Virus record (IMG/VR): IMGVR_UViG_2690316148_000003
Source of the DNA: a virus
Taxonomy: Duplodnaviria; Heunggongvirae; Uroviricota; Caudoviricetes
Length of the DNA stretch: 14,938 nucleotides
Direction: 5' to 3' (one strand)
Under the pieces are notes generated by a model that was not told the origin of the DNA, did no database searches, and saw only the letters and a list, made by a program, of their open reading frames with translations. A program made the position numbers and the translations under genes. How positions within the stretch are numbered: position 1 is the stretch's first letter; each line of letters opens with the position of its first letter. This document shows positions 1-9,879 of the stretch, one piece after another.

Positions 1-60
1 GCAGGAGCTGCCCGGGGTGGGGCAGGAGCTGCCCTAGGGGGTGGGGCAGGAGCTGCCCCC
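1..60 (+). repeat. Three tandem direct repeats of about 21-24 bp (core GGGGCAGGAGCTGCCC), truncated by the window edge; iteron-like
   Basis: Seen directly: gcaggagctgccc (1-13), ggggtggggcaggagctgccc (14-34), tagggggtggggcaggagctgccc (35-58). Unit lengths are multiples of 3 and lie in frame with the partial ORF. Confidence 0.6.
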
Positions 61-480
61 AGAACCTATCACTCTTTTGAACCAGTCAATGAACCTAAAA
101 ACATTATGTTCGAACATGTCCGAACGGAGTGTGAAAAAACTCCTGACCGTCACGAAGAAACCGACAAGGCATTCGAGGAAATATTCTGGTGTGCAGGCAT
201 GCGGAAAGCCGGGAAGAAAAACGCAGCTTCGGCATTCAGAACACAGTTCAGGGAATGGCGTAAAACTACCAGGGGTACGGCAAGCGAGTTTGCCACGATG
301 CTGGCAGAAGACATCGCATGCAGGAATGGTAAGCAGTTCGGATTCGACAGGTTGTTACCGTCGAGCTACCTGAACGGTCAGCGCTGGAACGACGAGAAGC
401 CAGAAACCATTCAACCACAATCCAGACCATCATCCGCAATTACCGTATCGAAAACTGGCTACGTGTTTTTCGACAGGTGA
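1..480 (+). CDS. 5'-partial ORF; hypothetical replication-module protein with Gly/Ala-rich repeat region (internal ATG at 106)
   Basis: Frame 1 is open from the first base to the TGA at 478-480. The track ORF 106..480 is the same frame, with no stop between position 1 and 106. Frame-1 translation of 1-66 is AGAARGGAGAALGGGAGAAPRT. Position immediately upstream of the primase suggests a replication role; function not recognised. Confidence 0.4.
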   Translation, partial: AGAARGGAGAALGGGAGAAPRTYHSFEPVNEPKNIMFEHVRTECEKTPDRHEETDKAFEEIFWCAGMRKAGKKNAASAFRTQFREWRKTTRGTASEFATMLAEDIACRNGKQFGFDRLLPSSYLNGQRWNDEKPETIQPQSRPSSAITVSKTGYVFFDR

Positions 481-483
481 ACC

Positions 484-591
484 ATGAAATCAAAAATCAA
501 ATCGCTACTGGTCGCTGGTTATAACCACGGCTGGTTAAGTATTTCGTTTGTCGATTTCTGGTTTAAAAATCTCGACCTCAGCAGCCATTAG
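484..591 (+). CDS. Small ORF, 35 aa (MKSKIKSLLVAGYNHGWLSISFVDFWFKNLDLSSH), hypothetical
   Basis: ATG at 484 lies 4 nt after the upstream stop, with AGGTGA at 475-480 as a possible RBS. Below the ORF-track size cutoff. No recognisable family. Confidence 0.2.
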   Translation: MKSKIKSLLVAGYNHGWLSISFVDFWFKNLDLSSH

Positions 592-599
592 CTCCGTCA

Positions 600-617
600 A
601 TGGCGTTTAAACGCCAT
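600..617. promoter_or_regulatory. Perfect 18-bp palindrome ATGGCGTTTAAACGCCAT upstream of the primase-helicase gene
   Basis: Self-complementary as read; followed by an imperfect inverted repeat CAGACG...CGTCTG (about 618-652). Function (operator, terminator or origin element) not determinable from sequence. Confidence 0.5.
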
Positions 618-707
618 CAGACGCGCTGTAGTGCGATAAACGACGGTCTGACGAATACACAGGATAAAAAAATATTGCGTCAGAATGCGATTCAGGACGG
701 TTAAAGT

Positions 708-3614
708 ATGAGTCCATCAGAACTTAGCGACCTGCTTTGGGCGCAGGTTGACAGGGTGGCTCCGCACCTGTTGCCAAACGGCAAGAAAGAGGGGCATGAG
801 TGGGTTGCCGGTAACGTCAACGGTGACAAGGGAAACAGCCTTAAGGTCAACCTTAGCGGTAAGAAAAAATGGGCTGATTTCGCTGAGGGAGACGGCGGTG
901 ACATGCTTGATTTGTGGATGGCATGTCGTGGAATTAACCTGCATCAGGCTATGCAGGAAGCGAAAGCATTTCTCGGTATCAAGGATGACGATCACCATTT
1001 CGATGCCAGACGTGAGAAGAAATTCTCCAGACCTGATCGCAAGAAAATCGCCCACTACGTTACCAGAACAGAATCCCATCTTGAGTACCTGCAATCGCGT
1101 GGCATATCGCCAGAAGTCGTAAAGCGCTACGAGGTTGTCAGCGGCAAGGTGTGGAATGGAGAACGAGAACTGGATGCTCTGGTGCTTCCGTACAAACGCG
1201 ATGGTGAGTTGTTGCAGGTCAAGCGAATCAGCACTGAGCGCCCGGACGGGAAGAAAGTCATTATGGCAGAAGGTGATTGCGAACCTTGCCTGTTCGGATG
1301 GCAGGCTCTGGACGCTGGCGTGAGGGCGGTTGTGCTTTGCGAAGGCGAAATTGATTGTATGAGCTATGCGCAATACGGCATCTCGGCGTTATCCGTGCCG
1401 TTTGGTGGCGGGAAAGGCGCTAAGCAACAGTGGATTGAGTTTGAGTATCACAACCTCGACAGGTTTGAGGAAATATTCATCTCGATGGACGTTGATGATG
1501 TTGGTCGTGAAGCCGCAAGGGAAATCGCAAGCCGACTCGGTGAACATCGTTGCCGTCTTGTTACTCTGCCGTACAAAGACATCAACGAATGCCTGATGAA
1601 CGGTGTTACCGAGGATGAAATCTGGCAGTACATCGGCACGGCATCCTACTTCGATCCTGAAGAACTCTACAGCGCGCGCGAGTTTTACCAGGACACTATC
1701 AACGCTTTCTACGGCAAGCAGCAGTATCTGTTTAATCCACCGTGGGAATCTCTGGCAGATAAATTCCAGTTCCGTGAGGCAGAGTTGACGCTGGTCAATG
1801 GTGTGAACGGTCACGGAAAGGCATGCCCACTGAATGAGCCTATTCTTTTAGCTGATGGGACATGGACTACTCACGGGAATGTAAAAATTGGCGATCAGGT
1901 GGCGTCAGTAGACGGCAATCCGTCAACTGTCACTGGGATATTCCCGCAGGGTGTTAGAGATGTTTACCGAGTCACATTTGAAGATGGTCGTTATGTTGAT
2001 TGCGCAGGCGATCACCTATGGGAGGTCACTAGTCGTGGATTCACGAAAGGCGAGAAACGCCGCGTGATAGATACCTTCGGGTTGAAGCGGTTGAGTGAAA
2101 CGAAGAGGCACAAAAATGGCGTTAGGATTCCTGAAATAACTGGTGACTTTGGCGACCACTCAGAGCCATTAGCATGGGTTATCGGCTCCCTTCTCGGGGA
2201 TGGTAGTCTTAGCAATGGGAGCGTGAAGTTTTCAAACGTCGAGCCATACATGATCGAGCGTATGAAGGCTGAACTGCCTGATTACAACTTCTCTGGAGAT
2301 GGTAAGGACTGGCTGATATCAACGGCGCGTGGTCAGGTAAATCCACTCATGGAGACCCTGCGAGGTTATGGACTAATGGGGTGCACAGCAAAAAACAAAT
2401 TCATCCCTCGTGTGTTTTTTTCCGCAAATAAATCAACGCGTATAGGCATGCTGTGTGGTCTGCTTGAAACGGATGGGTATGTCGAGAAGGATGGAACGCT
2501 TGTTTTTTCCTCAGCAAGTGAAAAACTGCGCAATGGGGTTGTTCAACTGGTTAACTCACTCGGCGGGTCATGCCGGACGCGAGTTAAAACTGGCGTGACA
2601 TACACATACAAGGACGATAAGCGGCATGGGATGGATTCATACGAGGCAAGAATCAGACTGACAAGAGAAATCAGGGAGGCCATCCGTTCACCACGACTCA
2701 ATGGCAGATTAACTGCGCATCGATTCGAGGGCTGTGGGGTATTCGTCAGGAATGTTGAAAAAATCGGCAATGCAGAATGCTTGTGTATTATGGTCGATCA
2801 CCCTCGCCACCTGTATGTAACCAGGGGATATGTGGCGACGCATAACACCGAGGTTGTCGGGCATATGGCACTTGAGGCAATGCGTCAGGGTGTGAAGACG
2901 TGCATCGCGTCACTTGAGCTGAAGCCTGGTATTCTCCTTAAGCGACTTACCCGTCAGGCAACGTGCTGCAAGATGCCGCCAGTGCTGGAAATTGACTCTG
3001 CATTTAAATTTTATGACGAAAGACTTTGGGTGTTTGGCCTGACCGGAACGGCGAAAGCCGACAGGCTGATCGAAATATTCGACTACGCTCGCCGCCGATA
3101 CGGCATCCAGTTATTCATTATCGACAGCCTGATGAAATGCGGCATAGGTGACGATGACTATAACGGGCAGAAAGCGTTTGTTGACTCGATTTGTGACTTC
3201 AAAAACAAAACAAACTCCCACGTCATTCTCGTTACTCACTCCAGAAAAGGAGACAGCGAAGAAAAACCAACCGGGAAAATGGACGTGAAAGGCTCTGGAG
3301 CGATAACAGACCTGACAGACAACCTTTTCATCATCTGGCGTAACAAGGCTCGCGAGAGAGCGTTACAGAGAGTTCAGAGTGGTGAAAAGATGTCAGAGAA
3401 GGACGAACAGCTACTGGCGTCTCCTGCATCTGTTTTGATGCTTGAAAAACAACGTAACGGCGAAGGCTGGGAAGGTGGTGTTCCGTTGTTCCTTGACGAG
3501 CAATCGCACCAGTTCCTGCAACTTGAATCAGGATCGCCATATAGCTACATCGCCAATATGCCGAAATCGGAATATGACGAGGCGTGGCGACAGGAAAACG
3601 TGACGGAGTATTAA
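708..3614 (+). CDS. Bifunctional DNA primase / SF4 (DnaB-like, T7 gp4-type) replicative helicase, interrupted by an intein
   Basis: 968-aa ORF. N-terminal region has Toprim-like acidic motifs (LCEGEIDCMSYA, ISMDVDDVGREA). C-terminal half resembles the T7 gp4 helicase domain: Walker A GVNGHGK...T, then IIDSLMKCG and VTHSRKG-type motifs. In-frame stop at 702-704 fixes the start at 708. Confidence 0.9.
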   Translation: MSPSELSDLLWAQVDRVAPHLLPNGKKEGHEWVAGNVNGDKGNSLKVNLSGKKKWADFAEGDGGDMLDLWMACRGINLHQAMQEAKAFLGIKDDDHHFDARREKKFSRPDRKKIAHYVTRTESHLEYLQSRGISPEVVKRYEVVSGKVWNGERELDALVLPYKRDGELLQVKRISTERPDGKKVIMAEGDCEPCLFGWQALDAGVRAVVLCEGEIDCMSYAQYGISALSVPFGGGKGAKQQWIEFEYHNLDRFEEIFISMDVDDVGREAAREIASRLGEHRCRLVTLPYKDINECLMNGVTEDEIWQYIGTASYFDPEELYSAREFYQDTINAFYGKQQYLFNPPWESLADKFQFREAELTLVNGVNGHGKACPLNEPILLADGTWTTHGNVKIGDQVASVDGNPSTVTGIFPQGVRDVYRVTFEDGRYVDCAGDHLWEVTSRGFTKGEKRRVIDTFGLKRLSETKRHKNGVRIPEITGDFGDHSEPLAWVIGSLLGDGSLSNGSVKFSNVEPYMIERMKAELPDYNFSGDGKDWLISTARGQVNPLMETLRGYGLMGCTAKNKFIPRVFFSANKSTRIGMLCGLLETDGYVEKDGTLVFSSASEKLRNGVVQLVNSLGGSCRTRVKTGVTYTYKDDKRHGMDSYEARIRLTREIREAIRSPRLNGRLTAHRFEGCGVFVRNVEKIGNAECLCIMVDHPRHLYVTRGYVATHNTEVVGHMALEAMRQGVKTCIASLELKPGILLKRLTRQATCCKMPPVLEIDSAFKFYDERLWVFGLTGTAKADRLIEIFDYARRRYGIQLFIIDSLMKCGIGDDDYNGQKAFVDSICDFKNKTNSHVILVTHSRKGDSEEKPTGKMDVKGSGAITDLTDNLFIIWRNKARERALQRVQSGEKMSEKDEQLLASPASVLMLEKQRNGEGWEGGVPLFLDEQSHQFLQLESGSPYSYIANMPKSEYDEAWRQENVTEY
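1821..2846 (+). mobile_element. Intein (Hint domain plus LAGLIDADG homing-endonuclease domain) inserted in the helicase Walker A motif
   Basis: Insert lies between GVNGHGK and TEVVGHMALEAM. It begins ACPLNEPILLADG (Ala codon 1821-1823, Cys codon 1824-1826) and ends YVATHN (Asn codon 2844-2846), followed by Thr at +1. Two LAGLIDADG-type motifs: LAWVIGSLLGDGSL (about 2169-2210) and IGMLCGLLETDGYV (about 2442-2483). Block-B-like GRYVDCAGDHLW and block-F-like ECLCIMVDHPRHLY. N-terminal boundary uncertain by one codon (1821 or 1824). Confidence 0.7.
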
Positions 3615-3692
3615 ATGACCATCTACATCACTGAGCTAATAGCAGGCCTGCTGGTAATCGCAGGCCTTTTTATTTGGGGGAGAGGGAAGTGA
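3615..3692 (+). CDS. Small hydrophobic ORF, 25 aa (MTIYITELIAGLLVIAGLFIWGRGK); possible single-pass membrane peptide
   Basis: ATG at 3615 directly abuts the primase stop (TAAATG). Its stop overlaps the GTG start of the next ORF (GTGA at 3689-3692). Central stretch is uniformly hydrophobic. Confidence 0.3.
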   Translation: MTIYITELIAGLLVIAGLFIWGRGK

Positions 3693-3967
3693 ACGATAGC
3701 TACCGACAGTTTGAAAACTGGTGGTCAAAAGACAAAAGCCAGTTCACAGGAGACGATGAATTAAAAGAGTTTGCCTGGGTGATATGGCAGGCATCGCGAG
3801 CAGCTATTGAACTGGATATCGACTGGCCCGAATCGAATGACGACTTTTGGAAAGATGGTGAAGAAGGTGCTTATGCGATGGGTTATGAGGATGGGCGTGA
3901 CAAAACGGTAATTGCAGTAATGAAAGCCATCAGGGCCGCAGGAATCAAAGAAAAGAATTTCGATTAA
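3689..3967 (+). CDS. Hypothetical acidic protein (about 92 aa)
   Basis: Track ORF 3674..3967 uses a TTG start. GTG at 3689 is preceded by GGGGGAGAGGGAA (RBS-like). No family recognised. Confidence 0.5.
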   Translation: MNDSYRQFENWWSKDKSQFTGDDELKEFAWVIWQASRAAIELDIDWPESNDDFWKDGEEGAYAMGYEDGRDKTVIAVMKAIRAAGIKEKNFD

Positions 3968-4098
3968 GCAAATATCACTTCAATAAATCGCTTTTAAGGC
4001 ATCACAATCGCTCTGTAGCGAGGTAAACGCGTGCAAGGTATTTATATAGCAGCGAGAATGAAAAATGCGTCAGAATACGTTTGAGGAGGTTTTAAGAA

Positions 4099-4314
4099 AT
4101 GAGTTCGTTGACTGAGCTTGTCCGCGCCGACTTTCAGGAGAACATTGGTCGTGCAAAGCGGTACTGGTCTGCTTCCAGACTTCCGACTGGCGAGAGACAG
4201 AAAAACGCCCCTAAGCCACGGAGCTATCCGCGTGACCGCGTTCTTCGCCGGTTGGTTAAAATCGATAATGATTTTCAGTGTGACAGAATTATCCGGAGTC
4301 TGGATTTAAAGTGA
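4099..4314 (+). CDS. Hypothetical basic protein (71 aa)
   Basis: Strong RBS GAGGAGG at 4083-4089, 9 nt upstream of ATG 4099. No family recognised. Confidence 0.6.
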   Translation: MSSLTELVRADFQENIGRAKRYWSASRLPTGERQKNAPKPRSYPRDRVLRRLVKIDNDFQCDRIIRSLDLK

Positions 4315-4324
4315 AGGAGTGAGC

Positions 4325-4621
4325 ATGAGCAAAGTATCACGAGGAATGAAAATATCGCTTATTTTCATCCTTAATCCGCATCGTATCTTTTTGGCTTCAG
4401 CAGTATGGCTGTCATATTTTGTTTATTGGTTAGCAGATAAATTGGATGATTTTGCGAAATGGCTTGAGAATTTTGCGAATGCGAGGTTTGAGTCATGGCC
4501 GCTTATCGGAGAGAAGATGTCTGACGAATTAAACCGGTATTACGCGGATAAGCGCAAGGAGAAGAGCAGGAGGGCAAGTGAAGCAATTATTCCTGCTTCG
4601 CAACGAAGCAATCAGAAATAA
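4325..4621 (+). CDS. Hypothetical protein with hydrophobic N-terminal segment (about 98 aa)
   Basis: AAGGAG at 4314-4319, 5 nt upstream of ATG 4325 (track ORF starts at GTG 4319). 3' end overlaps the ninB start by about 44 nt. Confidence 0.5.
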   Translation: MSKVSRGMKISLIFILNPHRIFLASAVWLSYFVYWLADKLDDFAKWLENFANARFESWPLIGEKMSDELNRYYADKRKEKSRRASEAIIPASQRSNQK

Positions 4622-5024
4622 CGCCATAGACGCCATTCTCTCACTACCCATCGACGACAAGTCACCCCACGAAGTCCACGTTAGAGAACCCAAACGCAGC
4701 AAAGCGCAGAATGACCGTATGTGGCCGATGCTGAACGATGTTTCGCGTCAGGTGCTATGGCATGGTCAACGGCTGGCGCCGGAAGACTGGAAAGACCTGT
4801 TCACTGCCCTGTGGCTTAAGACCAAAAAACTGGAGCAACGAAGTGCGCCTGGTATCGGCGGTGGCGTTGTCATGCTTGGCGTGCGTACCAGCAAAATGCG
4901 AAAGGCCAGCATGACTGAGCTTATCGAAATCATGTTCTGGTTCGGCTCAGAGCGCAACGTGCGGTGGAGTGATAACTCCCGGCGAGAGTATGAATGGTCA
5001 CAACGAACAGGGAGGGCGGCATGA
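4578..5024 (+). CDS. ninB: NinB (Orf-family recombination protein)
   Basis: 148-aa product resembles phage lambda NinB as recalled ([32 protein letters not shown]-terminal GRAA). GTG start at 4578. Confidence 0.85.
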
Positions 5025-5197
5025 GGCGACAGCGACGAAGTATTACCGACATAATCTGTGAAAACTGCAAATACCTTCCAACGAAACGCTCCAGAAATAA
5101 ACGCAAGCCAATCCCAAAAGAATCTGACGTAAAAACCTTCAACTACACGGCTCACCTGTGGGATATCCGGTGGCTAAGACATCGTGCGAGGAAATGA
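5021..5197 (+). CDS. ninE: NinE-family protein
   Basis: ATG at 5021 overlaps the ninB stop (ATGA), with GGAGGG just upstream. Product [38 protein letters not shown] matches lambdoid NinE as recalled. Confidence 0.7.
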
Positions 5198-5238
5198 CTA
5201 TTTATCCGGTGCGCCGCCAGAATGACGGCGCGGTGTGG

Positions 5239-5547
5239 TTAAACGAAGCGGATCTGGAGTTTTTTTCCAGTAGCGCGGGCGAATTTTTTTAGGGTGGCAA
5301 ATGATGGGCCGCTGATACCTGATGCGAGATTACTTTCCATTCTGGTGATCGCGGTCGCTTTTGTTCCCATTCGCTCGGCAACTTCAGCCTGAGTTAAGCC
5401 AGCTTCTTTGCGTGCTGCCAGCATTTCATCAAGCAGTGCGAATTCGTCAGCGATAGCGTCGTATTCTGCTTTAAAAGCCGGGTCTTCCATCCATTTGGCT
5501 GCCATTTCGTCGTGTGTCATGGTGGGGAGAGTGCGTTTACCAGTCAT
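5239..5547 (-). CDS. HTH (XRE-type) antitoxin / addiction-module antidote protein, HigA-like
   Basis: 102-aa product has a C-terminal HTH (GLTQAEVAERMGTKATAITRMES). Strong SD GAAGGAGG upstream on the minus strand. Overlaps the upstream toxin ORF by 11 nt. Confidence 0.8.
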   Translation of the reverse strand: MTGKRTLPTMTHDEMAAKWMEDPAFKAEYDAIADEFALLDEMLAARKEAGLTQAEVAERMGTKATAITRMESNLASGISGPSFATLKKFARATGKKLQIRFV

Positions 5548-5866
5548 GCTTAACCTCCTTCATTCTGGTTTCAGCTTTCTTGCGTTCGGCTGGCGGTGTT
5601 TTCTGCGTTTTCTTTACAAAACTATGCAGCATGATGATGCGTTTCCCTGTCAGAGTGCAGTAAAAAACACGCGCGATCCCATCGTTGCCTTTAATTCTGA
5701 GTTCGAAAAGTCCGTCACCAAAGGCGCTGGTGTGAGGTTCTCCGAGATTGCTGCCATATATCTTCATACGTTCAACGAGATGTTGGTATCGGGCACGCAT
5801 ACTCAATGGAAGCCGATCGACTTCCAGCCTTACATCTTCACTGTAGTATTCGATAGTGTAGTTCAT
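5537..5866 (-). CDS. RelE/ParE-superfamily toxin (Gp49-like / HigB-like addiction-module killer protein)
   Basis: About 110 aa from the internal Met (MNYTIEYYSEDVRLEVDRLP...RVFYCTLTGKRIIMLHSFVKKTQKTPPAERKKAE). Toxin-first gene order, as in HigB/HigA modules. Start uncertain: ATG at 5866 or 5878; the track's longer N-terminal extension is unlikely. Confidence 0.75.
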   Translation of the reverse strand: MNYTIEYYSEDVRLEVDRLPLSMRARYQHLVERMKIYGSNLGEPHTSAFGDGLFELRIKGNDGIARVFYCTLTGKRIIMLHSFVKKTQKTPPAERKKAETRMKEVKHDW

Positions 5867-5876
5867 AGGTATCAAC

Positions 5877-5892
5877 ATAACAAAATTGTTAT
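5877..5892. promoter_or_regulatory. Inverted repeat ATAACAA-AA-TTGTTAT at the toxin start; candidate operator for antitoxin autoregulation
   Basis: 7-bp perfect arms with 2-bp spacer, seen directly. It overlaps the alternative toxin start codon and a TATAAC -10-like hexamer on the minus strand. Confidence 0.4.
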
Positions 5893-6001
5893 ATGCATTC
5901 AAGGCCTGTAGTTGACGACAACACATATCCGGGGCTATATTCCTCACGCGCCAGCAAAATCTGGCGTCGGGATTGGAACCCCGGATATCGAAACGGTGCA
6001 T

Positions 6002-6021
6002 ACCGCGCTGGCGGTTTTTTT
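6002..6021 (+). terminator. Candidate rho-independent terminator (plus orientation)
   Basis: ACCGC-GCTG-GCGGT hairpin followed by seven T (6015-6021). Short stem, so moderate confidence. Confidence 0.4.
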
Positions 6022-6184
6022 ATGCGCTAAGCACAGTCACATTCGCGATTTATGGCGGGCTGTGTGGGGGCACCGAAAGGTGCGCCGGATGTTTCGACCG
6101 GTAGTTCCAACCCTGCACAGTTCGCCACCCGATGATTGGAACCTGAAGGTGGTGAGGTAAAAATTATCGAAACGCGAGGTCGTT

Positions 6185-6871
6185 ATGACTGTTCAAGTTG
6201 CTGTCAAAAACCTTTCCCCTGTCACTTATAACCAGATTCCTGTAATCACAACTGAGTTACTCGCCCGCCTTTACGGAACAGAAGCAATCCGTATACAGCA
6301 GAATCACCATGAAAATAAATCTCGATTTATTGAGGGAAAACACTTCTTTAAAGCTGTTGGTGATGAGCTCAAAAATTTGCGACTAGTTTTAAACGAGTCG
6401 CAAAATGAGGTGAAAATTTCTCCAAAAACCCGCTCCCTCATCCTCTGGACAGAACGCGGCGCAGCTCGTCACGCGAAGATGCTCGAAACCGATCAGGCAT
6501 GGGACGTGTTCGAAAAACTGGAAGACTGCTATTTCAGCCAGACTTCGAAAAGCGCAGGTCATCACGAGAAGAAAACCAGCGAGCTTTCTGCAAAAGATGC
6601 AAACAGTCTGGTATGGTTGTGGGATTATGCCAACCGCTCACAGGCATTATTCCGCGAACTGTATCCGGCGCTAAGACAAATTCAGTCTAACTATTCCGGC
6701 AGATGCCACGACTACGGTCATGAGTTCTCGTATGTTATCGGAATGGCGAGAGACGTTTTAATCAATCACACACGAGATGTTGATATTAATGAGCCAGACG
6801 GACCAACGAATCTTTCTGCATGGGTAAGACTTAAGAACAAAGAATTACCTCCTTCACTACATCACTACTGA
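6185..6871 (+). CDS. ORF6N-domain (antirepressor-type N-terminal domain) protein with an unassigned C-terminal half
   Basis: GAGGT RBS 4 nt before ATG 6185. N-terminal region ([16 protein letters not shown]...[22 protein letters not shown]...[15 protein letters not shown]) fits the ORF6N pattern as recalled. C-terminal ~110 aa not recognised. Confidence 0.7.
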
Positions 6872-6889
6872 CAGATTGCCAACGCAACG

Positions 6890-6914
6890 ACCCAGCTTCG
6901 GCTGGGTTTTTTAT
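6890..6914 (+). terminator. Rho-independent terminator
   Basis: ACCCAGC-TTCG-GCTGGGT hairpin followed by TTTTTTATT, immediately after the 6185..6871 stop. Confidence 0.7.
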
Positions 6915-6945
6915 TGCTGAATTTTCAATATGAGAGGACATGACA

Positions 6946-7200
6946 ATGAACGAGCTGATAAATAGCAACGCCATCAAAATGACCAGCATTGAAATCGCTG
7001 AGTTGGTGGGTAAGCGTCATGACAATGTGAAACGTACCATCGAAACGCTGGTTAAAAGTGGAGTTATCCGGCTTCCTCAAATTGAGGTTTCCGAAAGAAT
7101 CAATAACTTAGGGTTCAATGTTCAGTACGAGCATTACGTCTTCGAAGGCGAACAAGGTAAGCGCGACAGCATTATTGTCGTTGAAGGAGGTGTTGCATGA
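6946..7200 (+). CDS. Rha-family phage regulatory protein (short, Rha domain only)
   Basis: MTSIEIAELVGKRHDNVKRTIETL matches the Rha N-terminal motif as recalled. GAGAGGA RBS favours ATG 6946 over the track's 6940. Stop overlaps the next start (ATGA). Confidence 0.75.
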   Translation: MNELINSNAIKMTSIEIAELVGKRHDNVKRTIETLVKSGVIRLPQIEVSERINNLGFNVQYEHYVFEGEQGKRDSIIVVEGGVA

Positions 7201-7967
7201 ATGCCGTAATTATTGCCAACGCAGAAATCGTGCCGATTGAGTTTAATGGCGAGCGTGTTGTTACGTATCAAATGATTGCTGATATTCACGGGGTTCCAGT
7301 AGCCACTATTCAAAATGGCTATGCGCGAAACTCTGAGTATTTCATAGACAGGGAAGATACATATTTTATTGATTTTCATGAAAATACCTTTAGAAGGGGT
7401 TTTGAAATTCCTCCTCGTGGCATGCGAGTTTTCACTGAATCAGGCTATTTGATGCTGGTTAAAACCCTGCGCGACGAGACGGCGTGGAGAGTGCAACGTG
7501 AGCTTGTTCGCAATTATTTTCGTGGCCAAAAAGAAGATAAGTCAGCCTTGCCCGACTTCACAAACCCTGCTGAAGCCGCCAGAGCGTGGGCAAACGAATA
7601 TGAGCAGAAAGTGAAGCTGGAGCAACAACTCGCGATTGCCGCACCTAAAGTTGAGTTTGCCGATCGCGTTGGCGAGGCCAGCGGAATTTTGATTGGAAAC
7701 TTTGCAAAGGTTGTTGGTATTGGCCCAAACAAACTGTTTGCGTGGATGCGTGATCACAAAATCCTTATTGCTTCAGGTTCCCGGCGCAATGTGCCAATGC
7801 AGGAATATATGGATCGCGGCTATTTCACAGTGAAAGAAACAGCGGTCAACACAAATCACGGAATACAGATATCGTTCACCACAAAAATCACCGGGCGTGG
7901 TCAACAGTGGCTGACCAGAAAGCTGCTCGATAACGGAATGCTGAAAGTAACAGGGGAGGCTGCATGA
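7197..7967 (+). CDS. Phage antirepressor: N-terminal ORF6N/AntA-like domain plus C-terminal KilA-C (ANT) domain
   Basis: 256 aa. N-terminal ARNSEYFIDREDTYFI-type motif; C-terminal LFAWMRDHKILIASGSRRNVPMQEYMDRGYF resembles KilA-C. Translationally coupled at both ends. Confidence 0.8.
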   Translation: MNAVIIANAEIVPIEFNGERVVTYQMIADIHGVPVATIQNGYARNSEYFIDREDTYFIDFHENTFRRGFEIPPRGMRVFTESGYLMLVKTLRDETAWRVQRELVRNYFRGQKEDKSALPDFTNPAEAARAWANEYEQKVKLEQQLAIAAPKVEFADRVGEASGILIGNFAKVVGIGPNKLFAWMRDHKILIASGSRRNVPMQEYMDRGYFTVKETAVNTNHGIQISFTTKITGRGQQWLTRKLLDNGMLKVTGEAA

Positions 7968-8326
7968 ATGAGTACAGATTCACGCTTCCATACCCACCAT
8001 CGCTGAATACCTACTGGCGAAGACGGGGAAGCCAATACTACATCAGCGATAAAGGCCAGAAATACCGAAAAGACGTTCAGCAAATCATCCGCCAACTCAA
8101 GTTAGATATTTTCACCAAAGCACGACTCCGCATCAAAGTCATCGCAGACGTTCCAGACTCCCGCCGCCGCGACCTCGACAACATCCTGAAGGGGCTACTC
8201 GACTCTCTTATCCACGCCGGATTTGCGGAAGACGACGAGCAATTCGATGACATTCGCGTAATTCGTGGTGTGAAAGTACCAGGCGGAAGGCTTGGAATAA
8301 AAATCACCGAACTGGAGAACGTATGA
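7964..8326 (+). CDS. rusA: Holliday-junction resolvase RusA
   Basis: 120 aa. PYPPSLNTYWRRRG, PDSRRRDLDNILKGLLDSL and RLGIKITE match RusA as recalled. Confidence 0.85.
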   Translation: MNEYRFTLPYPPSLNTYWRRRGSQYYISDKGQKYRKDVQQIIRQLKLDIFTKARLRIKVIADVPDSRRRDLDNILKGLLDSLIHAGFAEDDEQFDDIRVIRGVKVPGGRLGIKITELENV

Positions 8327-8511
8327 ACGCCACAATTCAAACGATACCAGAGCTTCTTATCCAGACACGAGGCAATCAGACCGAAGTGGCGAGGATGCTT
8401 TCCTGCGCAAGAGGAACAGTGCTCAAGTACAACCGAGACAGCAAAGGCGAGCGTCACGTAATAGTTAACGGCGTCCTGATGGTCAAACAGGGCAAGAGGG
8501 GAAGACGATGA
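8323..8511 (+). CDS. ninH: NinH-like protein
   Basis: 62 aa. GNQTEVARMLSCARGTVLKY...VIVNGVLMV resembles lambda NinH. Located immediately upstream of Q, as in lambda. Confidence 0.65.
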   Translation: MNATIQTIPELLIQTRGNQTEVARMLSCARGTVLKYNRDSKGERHVIVNGVLMVKQGKRGRR

Positions 8512-9131
8512 GACTCGAAAGCGTAGCTAAATTTCATTCGCCAAAAAGCCCGATGATGAGCGACTCACCACGGGCTACGGCTTCTGACTCTCTTTCCGGT
8601 ACTGATGTGATGGCTGCTATGGGGATGGCGCAATCACAAGCCGGATTCGGAATGGCTGCATTTTGCGGTAAGCATGAACTCAGCCAGAACGACAAACAAA
8701 AGGCTATCAACTATCTGATGCAATTTGCACACAAGGTATCGGGGAAATACCGTGGTGTGGCAAAGCTCGAAGGAAATACTAAGGCAAAGGTACTGCAAGT
8801 GCTCGCAACATTCGCTTATGCGGATTATTGCCGTAGTGCCGCGACGCCGGGCGCAAGATGCAGAGATTGCCACGGAACAGGTCTGGCAGTTGATATAGCC
8901 AAAACAGAGCAGTGGGGGAGAGTTGTCGAGAAAGAGTGCGGAAGATGCAAAGGTGTCGGCTATTCAAGGATGCCAGCAAGTGCAGCATATCGCGCTGTAA
9001 CGATGCTAATCCCAAACCTCACCCAACCCACATGGTCACGCACTGTTAAGCCGCTGTATGACGCTCTGGTGGTGCAATGCCACAAAGAAGAGTCAATCGC
9101 AGACAACATTTTGAATGCGGTCACACGTTAG
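8508..9131 (+). CDS. Q: Late-gene antiterminator Q (lambda-type)
   Basis: 207-aa product appears essentially identical to phage lambda Q as recalled (MRLESVAKFHSPKSPMMSDSPRATASDSLSG...CRDCHGTG...CGRCKGVGYSRMP...NAVTR). Confidence 0.9.
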   Translation: MRLESVAKFHSPKSPMMSDSPRATASDSLSGTDVMAAMGMAQSQAGFGMAAFCGKHELSQNDKQKAINYLMQFAHKVSGKYRGVAKLEGNTKAKVLQVLATFAYADYCRSAATPGARCRDCHGTGLAVDIAKTEQWGRVVEKECGRCKGVGYSRMPASAAYRAVTMLIPNLTQPTWSRTVKPLYDALVVQCHKEESIADNILNAVTR

Positions 9132-9391: not shown

Positions 9392-9466
9392 GGGTCAGTC
9401 GTATAAAGGTCATTACGGAAGGCTGTTAACCTTCTTATCGTTGTTCGAGTCCACGCTGTCCCGCCA
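9392..9466 (+). tRNA. tRNA-like gene, anticodon GUU (Asn), with mismatches in acceptor, D and T stems; possibly degenerate
   Basis: Hand-folded cloverleaf: acceptor GGGTCAG/CTGTCCC (one T-T mismatch), perfect anticodon stem GAAGG/CCTTC with loop CTGTTAA, T-loop TTCGAGT, discriminator G, encoded CCA. Confidence 0.45.
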
Positions 9467-9471
9467 AATAT

Positions 9472-9547
9472 GCTGGTTTAGCTCTAATGGTAGAGCAGTC
9501 GCCTTGTAAGCGAATGGGTAGCGGTTCAAGTCCGTTAACCAGCACCA
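9472..9547 (+). tRNA. tRNA, anticodon UGU (Thr)
   Basis: Hand-folded cloverleaf: perfect 7-bp acceptor stem GCTGGTT/AACCAGC, D-stem GCTC/GAGC, anticodon loop CTTGTAA, T-arm AGCGG-TTCAAGT-CCGTT, discriminator A, encoded CCA. 76 nt. Confidence 0.75.
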
Positions 9548-9663
9548 TAACTGAGCCGTAGCCACTGGCTATCCTGAATTCATCAGTGACAGTTACGCTG
9601 CGGCCTTCTTTTCCCCTTCCCAATATAAGAACTACGCCATCCGTTATTTGCGGAGGTGAGGCT

Positions 9664-9879
9664 ATGAAATCCATGGACAAAATTTCAACGGGCATTGCCT
9701 ACGGCACCTCCGCCGGCAGTGCCGGCTACTGGTTTTTGCAGTGGTTGGATCAGGTCAGTCCGTCACAGTGGGCTGCGATTGGTGTGCTGGGAAGTCTGCT
9801 TCTGGGGCTTCTGACTTATCTGACAAATCTGTATTTCAAAATAAGAGAAGATAAGCGTAAGGCTGCGAGAGGTGAATAA
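9664..9879 (+). CDS. S: Class II holin (phage 21 S-type pinholin) with dual start
   Basis: [30 protein letters not shown]...[15 protein letters not shown] closely matches phage 21 S holin as recalled. Two in-frame starts (Met1 and Met4). RBS GGAGGTGAGG upstream; the track ORF begins further upstream at 9586. Confidence 0.85.

Follow-up and report, generated by a model that had tools for sequence, protein, structure and literature searches.

A probable replication origin inside the HTH_36-type initiator gene of a lambdoid prophage

The window analysed here is a stretch of 14,938 nucleotides of Caudoviricetes DNA (IMG/VR record IMGVR_UViG_2690316148_000003). Comparison with related loci indicates that its positions 1–125 are very probably the replication origin of a lambdoid prophage, situated in its own initiator gene, where this codes for the linker. 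The arrangement is that of a known origin type, in which direct repeats within the coding sequence of the initiator separate its DNA-binding domain from its C-domain. The sequence-only reading had proposed an origin here, and had named a frame closed just upstream and an unrelated product as the findings that would speak against it. On both points, the outcome favours the origin.

Results

Initiator gene

The window opens in the 3' part of a replication-initiator gene (positions 1–480, plus strand; 159 codons and a stop), the 5' part of which, coding for the HTH_36 domain, lies outside the window. Frame 1 is open from position 1 to the TGA at 478–480, and the product consists of AGAARGGAGAALGGGAGAAP followed by a 139-residue non-repetitive part. 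The sequence was extended upstream, as the sequence-only reading had advised, by means of relatives that are 95–99% identical. These relatives keep frame 1 open to an ATG about 290 nt upstream. Complete initiators in relatives are 258–286 residues long and consist of a winged-helix N-domain, three to seven repeats, a linker, and a C-domain. In particular, the full ORF has 258 residues and three repeats in E. coli FDAARGOS_943 (99% identical to the window), 279 residues and six repeats in E. coli UTME-3, and 286 residues and seven repeats in Stx2_EH2085.

The N-terminal 95 residues of full-length homologues (L086, L087, and L002) match HTH_36 (PF13730) with an E value of 5e-14. A full-length relative compared with PF04492 and TIGR01610 gives no match and is recognised by HTH_36 alone, whereas lambda O and ES18 gp59 do match PF04492 or TIGR01610. 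The PHROGs label is 'replication initiation protein / O-like', and the annotations in relatives are 'replication protein O' or 'helix-turn-helix domain-containing protein'. The product is a winged-helix replication initiator and neither a structural protein nor one of unrelated function. Two families, PHROGs 345 and 678, are matched both by the window-type N-domain and by the N-domain of lambda O; by themselves, these shared PHROGs suggest a remote kinship of the N-domain to the lambda O family. In addition, PHROG 391 is matched by the window-type N-domain and by the C-domain of lambda O. Therefore, proteins that join an HTH_36-type N-domain to a lambda O C-domain exist.

In the AlphaFold model, made with 43 homologues, the N-domain is composed of four helices (H1–H4) and a β-hairpin wing, with a pLDDT of about 90. 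The truncated model is disordered past residue 94 (pLDDT below 50), that is, in the repeat-encoded segment and the partial C-domain. A sequence search of the PDB with the full-length initiator returned nothing below E = 0.27. A fold search returned weak winged-helix matches, including 4pql, 4pt7 ('Structure of initiator'), and 5kbj ('Structure of Rep-DNA complex'), with E values of about 1e-3 and TM scores of 0.3–0.4, which are barely better than those of generic MarR/Fur winged-helix matches; the matches to initiators are thus suggestive at most. We take these three entries to be RepA_N proteins of staphylococcal plasmids, the iterons of which presumably also lie inside the rep gene.

Iteron array

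Positions 1–59 contain three copies of GGGGCAGGAGCTGCCC(C), the first of which is truncated by the edge of the window. Copy 1 (1–13) is represented by GCAGGAGCTGCCC and is complete in L086 and Min27. Copy 2 (19–35) has the core GGGGCAGGAGCTGCCC(T), with 7-bp inverted arms around GAG. Copy 3 (43–59) is a perfect 17-bp dyad, GGGGCAGGAGCTGCCCC. The start-to-start distances are 21 and 24 bp. Tandem repeats of about 21–24 bp had been noticed at the window edge, in frame with an ORF that stays open to position 480, and both observations hold. At 1–58, Tandem Repeats Finder counts a 21–24 bp unit 2.6 times, and the 16-mer GGGGCAGGAGCTGCCC matches exactly at 19–34 and 43–58. It has no further match in the 14.9 kb with up to three mismatches allowed, where shuffled sequences lead one to expect 0.10. 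The 14.9 kb contains no second repeat array, the remaining Tandem Repeats Finder rows being about two copies of 7–10 bp. The GC content is 78% in 1–60 and 33% in 61–105, compared with 50.6% for the whole window.

Every iteron in the window is itself palindromic (GGGGCAG-GAG-CTGCCCC), with the 7-bp arms GGGGCAG and CTGCCCC flanking GAG, a feature that is absent from the sequence-only reading. Such dyad symmetry is what a binding site for a dimer would be expected to show. In class A relatives, the GGGGCAGGAGCTGCCCC version of the iteron always adjoins the invariant element described below. The central triplet is inverted (GGGGCAGCTCCTGCCCC) in some iterons (in L011 and in L037, there the first iteron), which gives the same dyad in the opposite orientation and suggests that the iteron centre is not orientation-critical.

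The number of copies varies among relatives that are 95–99% identical: three in Min27 and E. coli FDAARGOS_943, six in UTME-3, and seven in Stx2_EH2085. Some relatives known from draft assemblies have no more than one or two copies. These short arrays may result from assembly collapse, and we do not accept them at face value as true copy numbers; if real, they would mean that few sites are enough. The array is the end point of many public contigs (L006, L007, L008, and L010) and of 'partial' proteins (P0001–P0017). The window, too, begins inside the array. Evidently, the iterons cause short-read assemblies to break or collapse, and copy numbers taken from draft genomes are therefore unreliable. 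The array thus explains a practical nuisance. The same facts, a window that starts inside the array and many contigs and proteins that end there, could be read as signs that the repeat at the edge is an assembly artefact. However, complete genomes and finished phage records hold three, six, or seven copies with the same flanks, and an artefact is extremely improbable.

In L088 (E. coli FDAARGOS_944; 56–1500), the IS110-family element ISEc20 lies inside the iteron array and splits the initiator gene. The insertion point is between ...CCCTAGGGGGTG and GGGGCAGGAGCTGCCCCC, and a second contig (L011) has the identical point, with the adjacent iteron centre flipped.

Repeats in related loci

The repeats were compared in two samples, one of 80 viral loci with relatives of the N-domain (99–66% identity) and one of a further 120 viral loci obtained by a scan for the downstream element, about 200 loci together. 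Tandem repeats of 21–25 bp lie directly 3' of the HTH domain in most of the 80 loci (in about 14, Tandem Repeats Finder reports none). In 117 loci of the element scan, a repeat-filled gap of 42–144 nt separates the HTH_36 domain from the element. The repeat classes include GGGGCAGGAGCTGCCC, GGGGCAGGAGATAACC, TGCCACCAGATGGCA/TGCCGTCAAAAAGCA, GTGCAGGAGTTGCAC, and GTAGGCCCAGAAAGCAC; the repeat of Vibrio phage D77 is TAGTGACAAAATGTCAC, and units resembling CCCCGCAGATCCTGCAC are found in Aeromonas and Pseudomonas phages. All iteron classes are dyad-symmetric (e.g., TGCCA..TGGCA, GTGCA..TGCAC, and GTGAC..GTCAC) and spaced by 21–25 bp.

The repeats could in principle be slippage-prone, low-complexity code for a Gly/Ala linker with no role as DNA sites. 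In accordance, the region is predicted to be disordered, the spacing in the closest relatives, only ever 21 or 24 bp, leaves the frame intact, and the copy number is free to vary from three to seven, possibly down to one. However, in L028 and L032 the window's unit GGGGCAGGAGCTGCCC is spaced by 17, 21, 22, and 24 bp and is read in two frames, as GGAGAA and as GQELPE, and the repeat spacing of 25 and 23 bp in L062 also leads to two frames. The same unit translated in two frames is a DNA element, which a peptide repeat cannot explain. In addition, dyad symmetry is kept in every sequence class, and lambda iterons are located at the equivalent place in ES18 and epsilon34. Finally, when the adjacent DNA-binding domain has another recognition helix and wing, the sequence of the unit is different as well. 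Taken together, these observations make the linker explanation very improbable.

The last point concerns the N-domain itself. Its residues 1–45 are nearly invariant, and the recognition helix (residues 51–63) and the wing vary between classes. Helix and wing change with the repeat, reading …RSTVKxHIRxLE…REFRRKGELNQSN in the GGGGCAG class and …SKSAVRxHIxAL…KENRxGxNNGKGNTSN in the TGCC..GCA class; the comparison is between these two classes, and the GTGCA..TGCAC, GTAGGC.., and TAGTGA.. types are known from the repeats alone. This co-variation is the pattern expected if the N-domain reads the repeats.

Invariant element

The element CCAGAACCTATCACTCTTTTGAACCAGTCAATGAACC (59–95) contains three GAACC repeats, has a GC content of 33%, and encodes the linker peptide RTYHSFEPVNEP. 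It is nearly invariant in the related loci, where its consensus is CCAGAACCAGTCACTCTTTTGAACCAGTCAATGAACC. In 59 unique relatives, 10 of the first 11 codons of RTSHSFEPVNE never show a synonymous alternative. Where the amino acid is conserved, the codon is the same with a frequency of 0.95 in the element, compared with 0.61 in the N-domain, where only 1 of 60 codons exceeds 0.95. The fixed synonymous codons indicate that the element is under purifying selection at the DNA level.

At least 120 viral contigs contain an exact 28-mer of the element. HTH_36 is encoded upstream on the same strand in 117 of them, and in the other three the upstream sequence is too short. With up to two mismatches, the element is found in GenBank phages of Escherichia, Salmonella, Klebsiella, Vibrio, Aeromonas, and Stenotrophomonas, always inside a replication-protein gene where the record is annotated. 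A literature search for the element found no paper containing CCAGAACCTATCACTCTTTTGAACCAGTCAATGAACC or the iteron sequences. The distant relatives L214 (Pseudomonas phage MD8, 1280–1330) and L215 (phiP27, 1182–1230) lack the invariant element; after their iterons, GAACC recurs every 11–15 bp (AGAACCGTAATAGAACCTACAAGGGAACCATCAGGAGAACC in MD8).

An AT-richer segment had been noted after the repeats. It is present, but it is modest (67% A+T in 61–105, compared with 78% in the lambda tract) and is not a unique minimum, other nearby 40-nt windows being equally low in GC. Its notable trait is the near-invariant sequence. The position of the element matches that of the unwinding tract of lambda, and positions 59–95 are a candidate unwinding or loading site. 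A broader reading, which we put forward tentatively, is that 59–95 is the sequence-specific core of a very large phage origin family, which stays fixed while everything around it is exchanged: iterons, recognition helix, C-domain, and helicase partner. If so, the element would be a strand-opening site, or the site of action of a conserved host factor or of a single-strand-binding mode of the initiator, and the unwinding element would be defined by its sequence and not merely AT-rich.

Junction

Positions 96–125 form the junction where homology to ES18, Sf101, and epsilon34 starts. They contain the palindrome TGTTCGAACA (107–116) and the direct repeat ATGTTCGAAC/ATGTCCGAAC. The sequence-only reading had counted the palindrome and the near-repeat at 117–125 among the features of the origin. 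Both are present, but the palindrome is neither significant nor conserved. The window has 9 perfect 10-bp palindromes where about 14.6 are expected. In relatives, the site reads AAGTTCGAACG (two E. coli prophages), is altered by a 1-bp deletion (Min27), or is replaced by a different inverted repeat (ES18, epsilon34, and Sf101). On these grounds, TGTTCGAACA was ruled out as an origin feature, and a function of TGTTCGAACA as a palindrome is improbable. In 1–760, scans for promoters and terminators gave counts at chance level, and an Rfam scan of 1–720 found no RNA family.

The 1-bp deletion, which turns TGTTCGAACA into TGTCGAACA, is shared by Min27 (L001, 4106–4372), phi24B, F403, F451, and Xuzhou21. 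It shifts the frame just past the origin, so that the annotated O protein has 222 residues with an out-of-frame tail. As a consequence, the C-domain could be made only separately, e.g., from the ATG at window position 199. Given this frameshift in Min27 and phi24B, a single fused initiator polypeptide may not be essential.

C-domain and partner genes

The region coding for the initiator C-domain (126–480, plus strand) has 92–97% DNA identity to phages with a lambda-type N-domain and belongs to PHROG 33384. BLASTP of the C-domain against lambda O found no similarity. We infer that it is the partner-recruiting domain. It is followed by a 35-residue ORF of the ES18 gp60 type (484–591, plus strand; PHROG 21848, E = 1e-24), which is annotated in ES18, epsilon34, and Oslo. 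The DNA of this small ORF is nearly invariant in the alignment and is co-inherited with the C-domain and the helicase.

The next gene (708–3614, plus strand) encodes a primase-helicase with a Toprim domain and a DnaB-like ATPase, as had been suggested in place of a P-type loader. It matches Toprim_2, AAA_25, LAGLIDADG_3, and Hint in Pfam, and its PHROG is 'DNA primase/helicase'. The 968-residue product contains a 342-residue intein (Hint and LAGLIDADG; nt 1821–2846) inside the Walker A motif, between GHGK and T. The intein apparently starts with Ala-Cys and closes with His-Asn, followed by Thr. Intein-less alleles have 626 residues (EH2085, ES18, and many prophages), and the Min27 record shows two CDSs. 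A spacer of about 120 bp (575–705) lies between the 35-residue ORF and the primase-helicase and contains a perfect 18-bp palindrome, ATGGCGTTTAAACGCCAT (600–617; about 0.06 expected). This spacer is found in only 2 of 5426 complete E. coli genomes; elsewhere, the small ORF abuts the helicase start codon.

Several partner genes are found 3' of the same N-domain, repeats, and element: lambda P (five cases), a DnaC/IstB-like protein (two), DnaB, a DUF968 protein (L062), and the primase-helicase. The initiator gene is directly 5' of a helicase or helicase-loader gene in all relatives except L062, where the DUF968 protein follows. Judged by gene order, this exchange of partners is the classic shuffling of lambdoid replication modules. 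The pairing of C-domain and helicase is not absolute, as the primase-helicase of L025 goes with another C-domain. By alignment, the gene is a mosaic of two cassettes, one made of the DNA-binding domain and the repeats, the other of the C-domain, the 35-residue ORF, and mostly the primase-helicase.

These partner genes bear on another explanation, in which the repeats bind the initiator mainly for autoregulation, copy control, or incompatibility and replication starts elsewhere, e.g., at a primase-helicase site as in P4. The large, multidomain primase-helicase would fit such a scheme, as would the frameshifted initiator of the Min27 lineage, which includes the viable phage phi24B. However, in profile searches not aimed at DNA-binding domains, the 626-residue intein-less helicase gives only Toprim, AAA_25, and DnaB_C matches, leaving it with no detected DNA-binding domain. 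In addition, the array at the window edge is the only one in the 14.9 kb, and the cassette of N-domain, iterons, and element occurs with partners as different as lambda P, DnaC-like proteins, and DnaB, just as lambdoid origin cassettes shuffle. A start elsewhere is therefore improbable on these points. An origin served by a self-sufficient primase-helicase of the P4 alpha type was considered separately and rejected, as a separate initiator gene precedes the helicase and the helicase has no DNA-binding domain detected in those searches.

Remainder of the window

Beyond these genes, the window has the usual content of a lambdoid right arm, with nin genes, Roi/Ant antirepressors, a C4-type antisense RNA, Q, two tRNAs, and lysis, terminase, and portal genes. 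A C4 antisense RNA, a1/b1 targets, and isrK (Rfam) are located at 5935–6132, directly 5' of the antirepressor genes at 6185–7967 (ORF6N/P22_AR_C and ORF6N/ANT). Together, they look like a P1/P7-style antisense-controlled antirepressor locus. The genes for tRNA-Asn(GTT) and tRNA-Thr(TGT) (9392–9547) lie between Q (8508–9131) and the holin gene (9586–9879). This interval is the stx site of related Stx phages, and the window has no stx there.

Discussion

The reading of positions 1–125 as an origin leads to a mechanism modelled on lambda O (PMC7466680 and work cited in it). Initiator dimers would bind the 17-bp dyad iterons, which are spaced by approximately two helical turns, through the N-terminal winged helix, and the nucleoprotein complex would then destabilise the adjoining GAACC-repeat element at 59–95. 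By the same analogy, the C-domain, perhaps together with the 35-residue protein, would bring in the phage primase-helicase instead of lambda P and host DnaB, and transcription across the gene may assist. As the iterons lie in a coding region that is predicted to be disordered, their copy number can change in frame-preserving steps.

Parts of this picture are already known, namely the lambda ori architecture, the primase-helicase-coupled version annotated in ES18 and epsilon34, and the Eru5 module. The literature searched, including the Eru, SfV, and ES18 papers, contained no binding, unwinding, or origin-function data for an HTH_36-type initiator. As far as this literature goes, three things are undescribed: the sequence of the iterons, the pairing of these iterons with a domain of the HTH_36 type, and the invariant element. 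The family would be an unusually clean case in which the recognition helix, the wing, and the iterons, which together set the specificity of the origin, move as a single cassette, whichever helicase-recruiting half they are combined with. The placement of the origin, the iterons, and the invariant core provide concrete targets for binding assays, origin plasmids, incompatibility typing, and the blocking of replication.

Among known systems, the iteron-binding winged-helix initiators of plasmids resemble the window-type initiator in fold, by a weak structural match; the initiator shows no sequence similarity to any solved structure.

Megablast matches include the Stx2 phages Min27, phi24B, F403, F451, and EH2085, Klebsiella phage phiKp_30, and many E. 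coli prophages; the best are E. coli FDAARGOS_943 (99.0%) and Klebsiella phage phiKp_30 (95–97%). Judged by DNA identity, the module of the window is the Eru5 replication region of Stx phages (Stx2a_F403, Min27, and phi24B). Positions 1–566 are 94–95% identical to Eru5 phages, with 94.7% for AP012529 (Stx2a_F403), which over all aligned pieces has 95.5% identity, covering 37% of the window within 1–7970. The Eru5 type is defined by an HTH_36 protein and a primase, and its module is found in outbreak O157:H7 strains (PMC8951638). That paper does not contain the word 'iteron' and uses 'origin' four times, never for a replication origin. In Stx phages, toxin gene dosage is driven by phage replication; the papers defining Eru5 do not place its origin. 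Eru5 phages have the 1-bp deletion that frameshifts the initiator, and the window differs from them in having no stx genes.

The lambda origin in gene O and the six-iteron origins of the lambdoid Stx phages 933W and P27 resemble the window in having iterons inside the initiator gene, between the DNA-binding and partner-binding domains. They are alike also in their dyad iterons, in a spacing of about 20–24 bp, and in an A+T-richer tract on the promoter-distal side. The N-domains differ, being Phage_rep_O (PF04492)/TIGR01610 in the lambda type and HTH_36 in the window. The iteron sequences, GGGGCAGGAGCTGCCCC in the window and ATCCCTCAAAACGAGGGA in lambda, are unrelated. The tract of the window is an invariant GAACC-repeat element, whereas that of lambda is an A-run with 22% GC. 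In addition, the C-domain of the window is unrelated to that of lambda O, and its partner is a primase-helicase, whereas the partner in lambda is P. Lambda and Stx phages also differ in the number of iterons, four and six, respectively, with an O protein that is longer to match (PMC7466680). The 'P27' O protein of that paper was set aside as an informant on the HTH_36 family; it is lambda-type and has no bearing on it.

The link between the two designs is provided by the Salmonella phages ES18 (gene 59/ori/gp60/gp61) and epsilon34 (gp50–52) and the Shigella phage Sf101, which have the same C-domain, 35-residue ORF, and primase-helicase as the window. Together with mEp043 and others, they are 92–97% identical to the window in DNA from position 96 on. 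ES18 and epsilon34 differ from the window in having a lambda-type N-domain and four lambda iterons. Sf101 has an N-domain of the Phage_rep_O type and, at the same place, a third type of iteron, GGTGACA..TGTCACC. All three have a lambda-like AT-rich tract and, in place of the direct repeat of the window, an inverted repeat of 7 bp, GTCCGAAagtgTTCGGAC. The depositors of ES18 and epsilon34 marked an origin, 'similar to lambda ori', within the initiator gene, immediately 5' of the segment shared with the window. After the initiator gene come the small ORF (gp60) and a primase-helicase described as 'similar to T7 gene 4'. The sequence-only reading had described the resemblance to lambda as an analogy. 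The analogy in layout holds, but analogy is not the whole of the relation, which is partly one of homology, as seen in the C-domain, small ORF, and primase-helicase common to the window, ES18, epsilon34, and Sf101.
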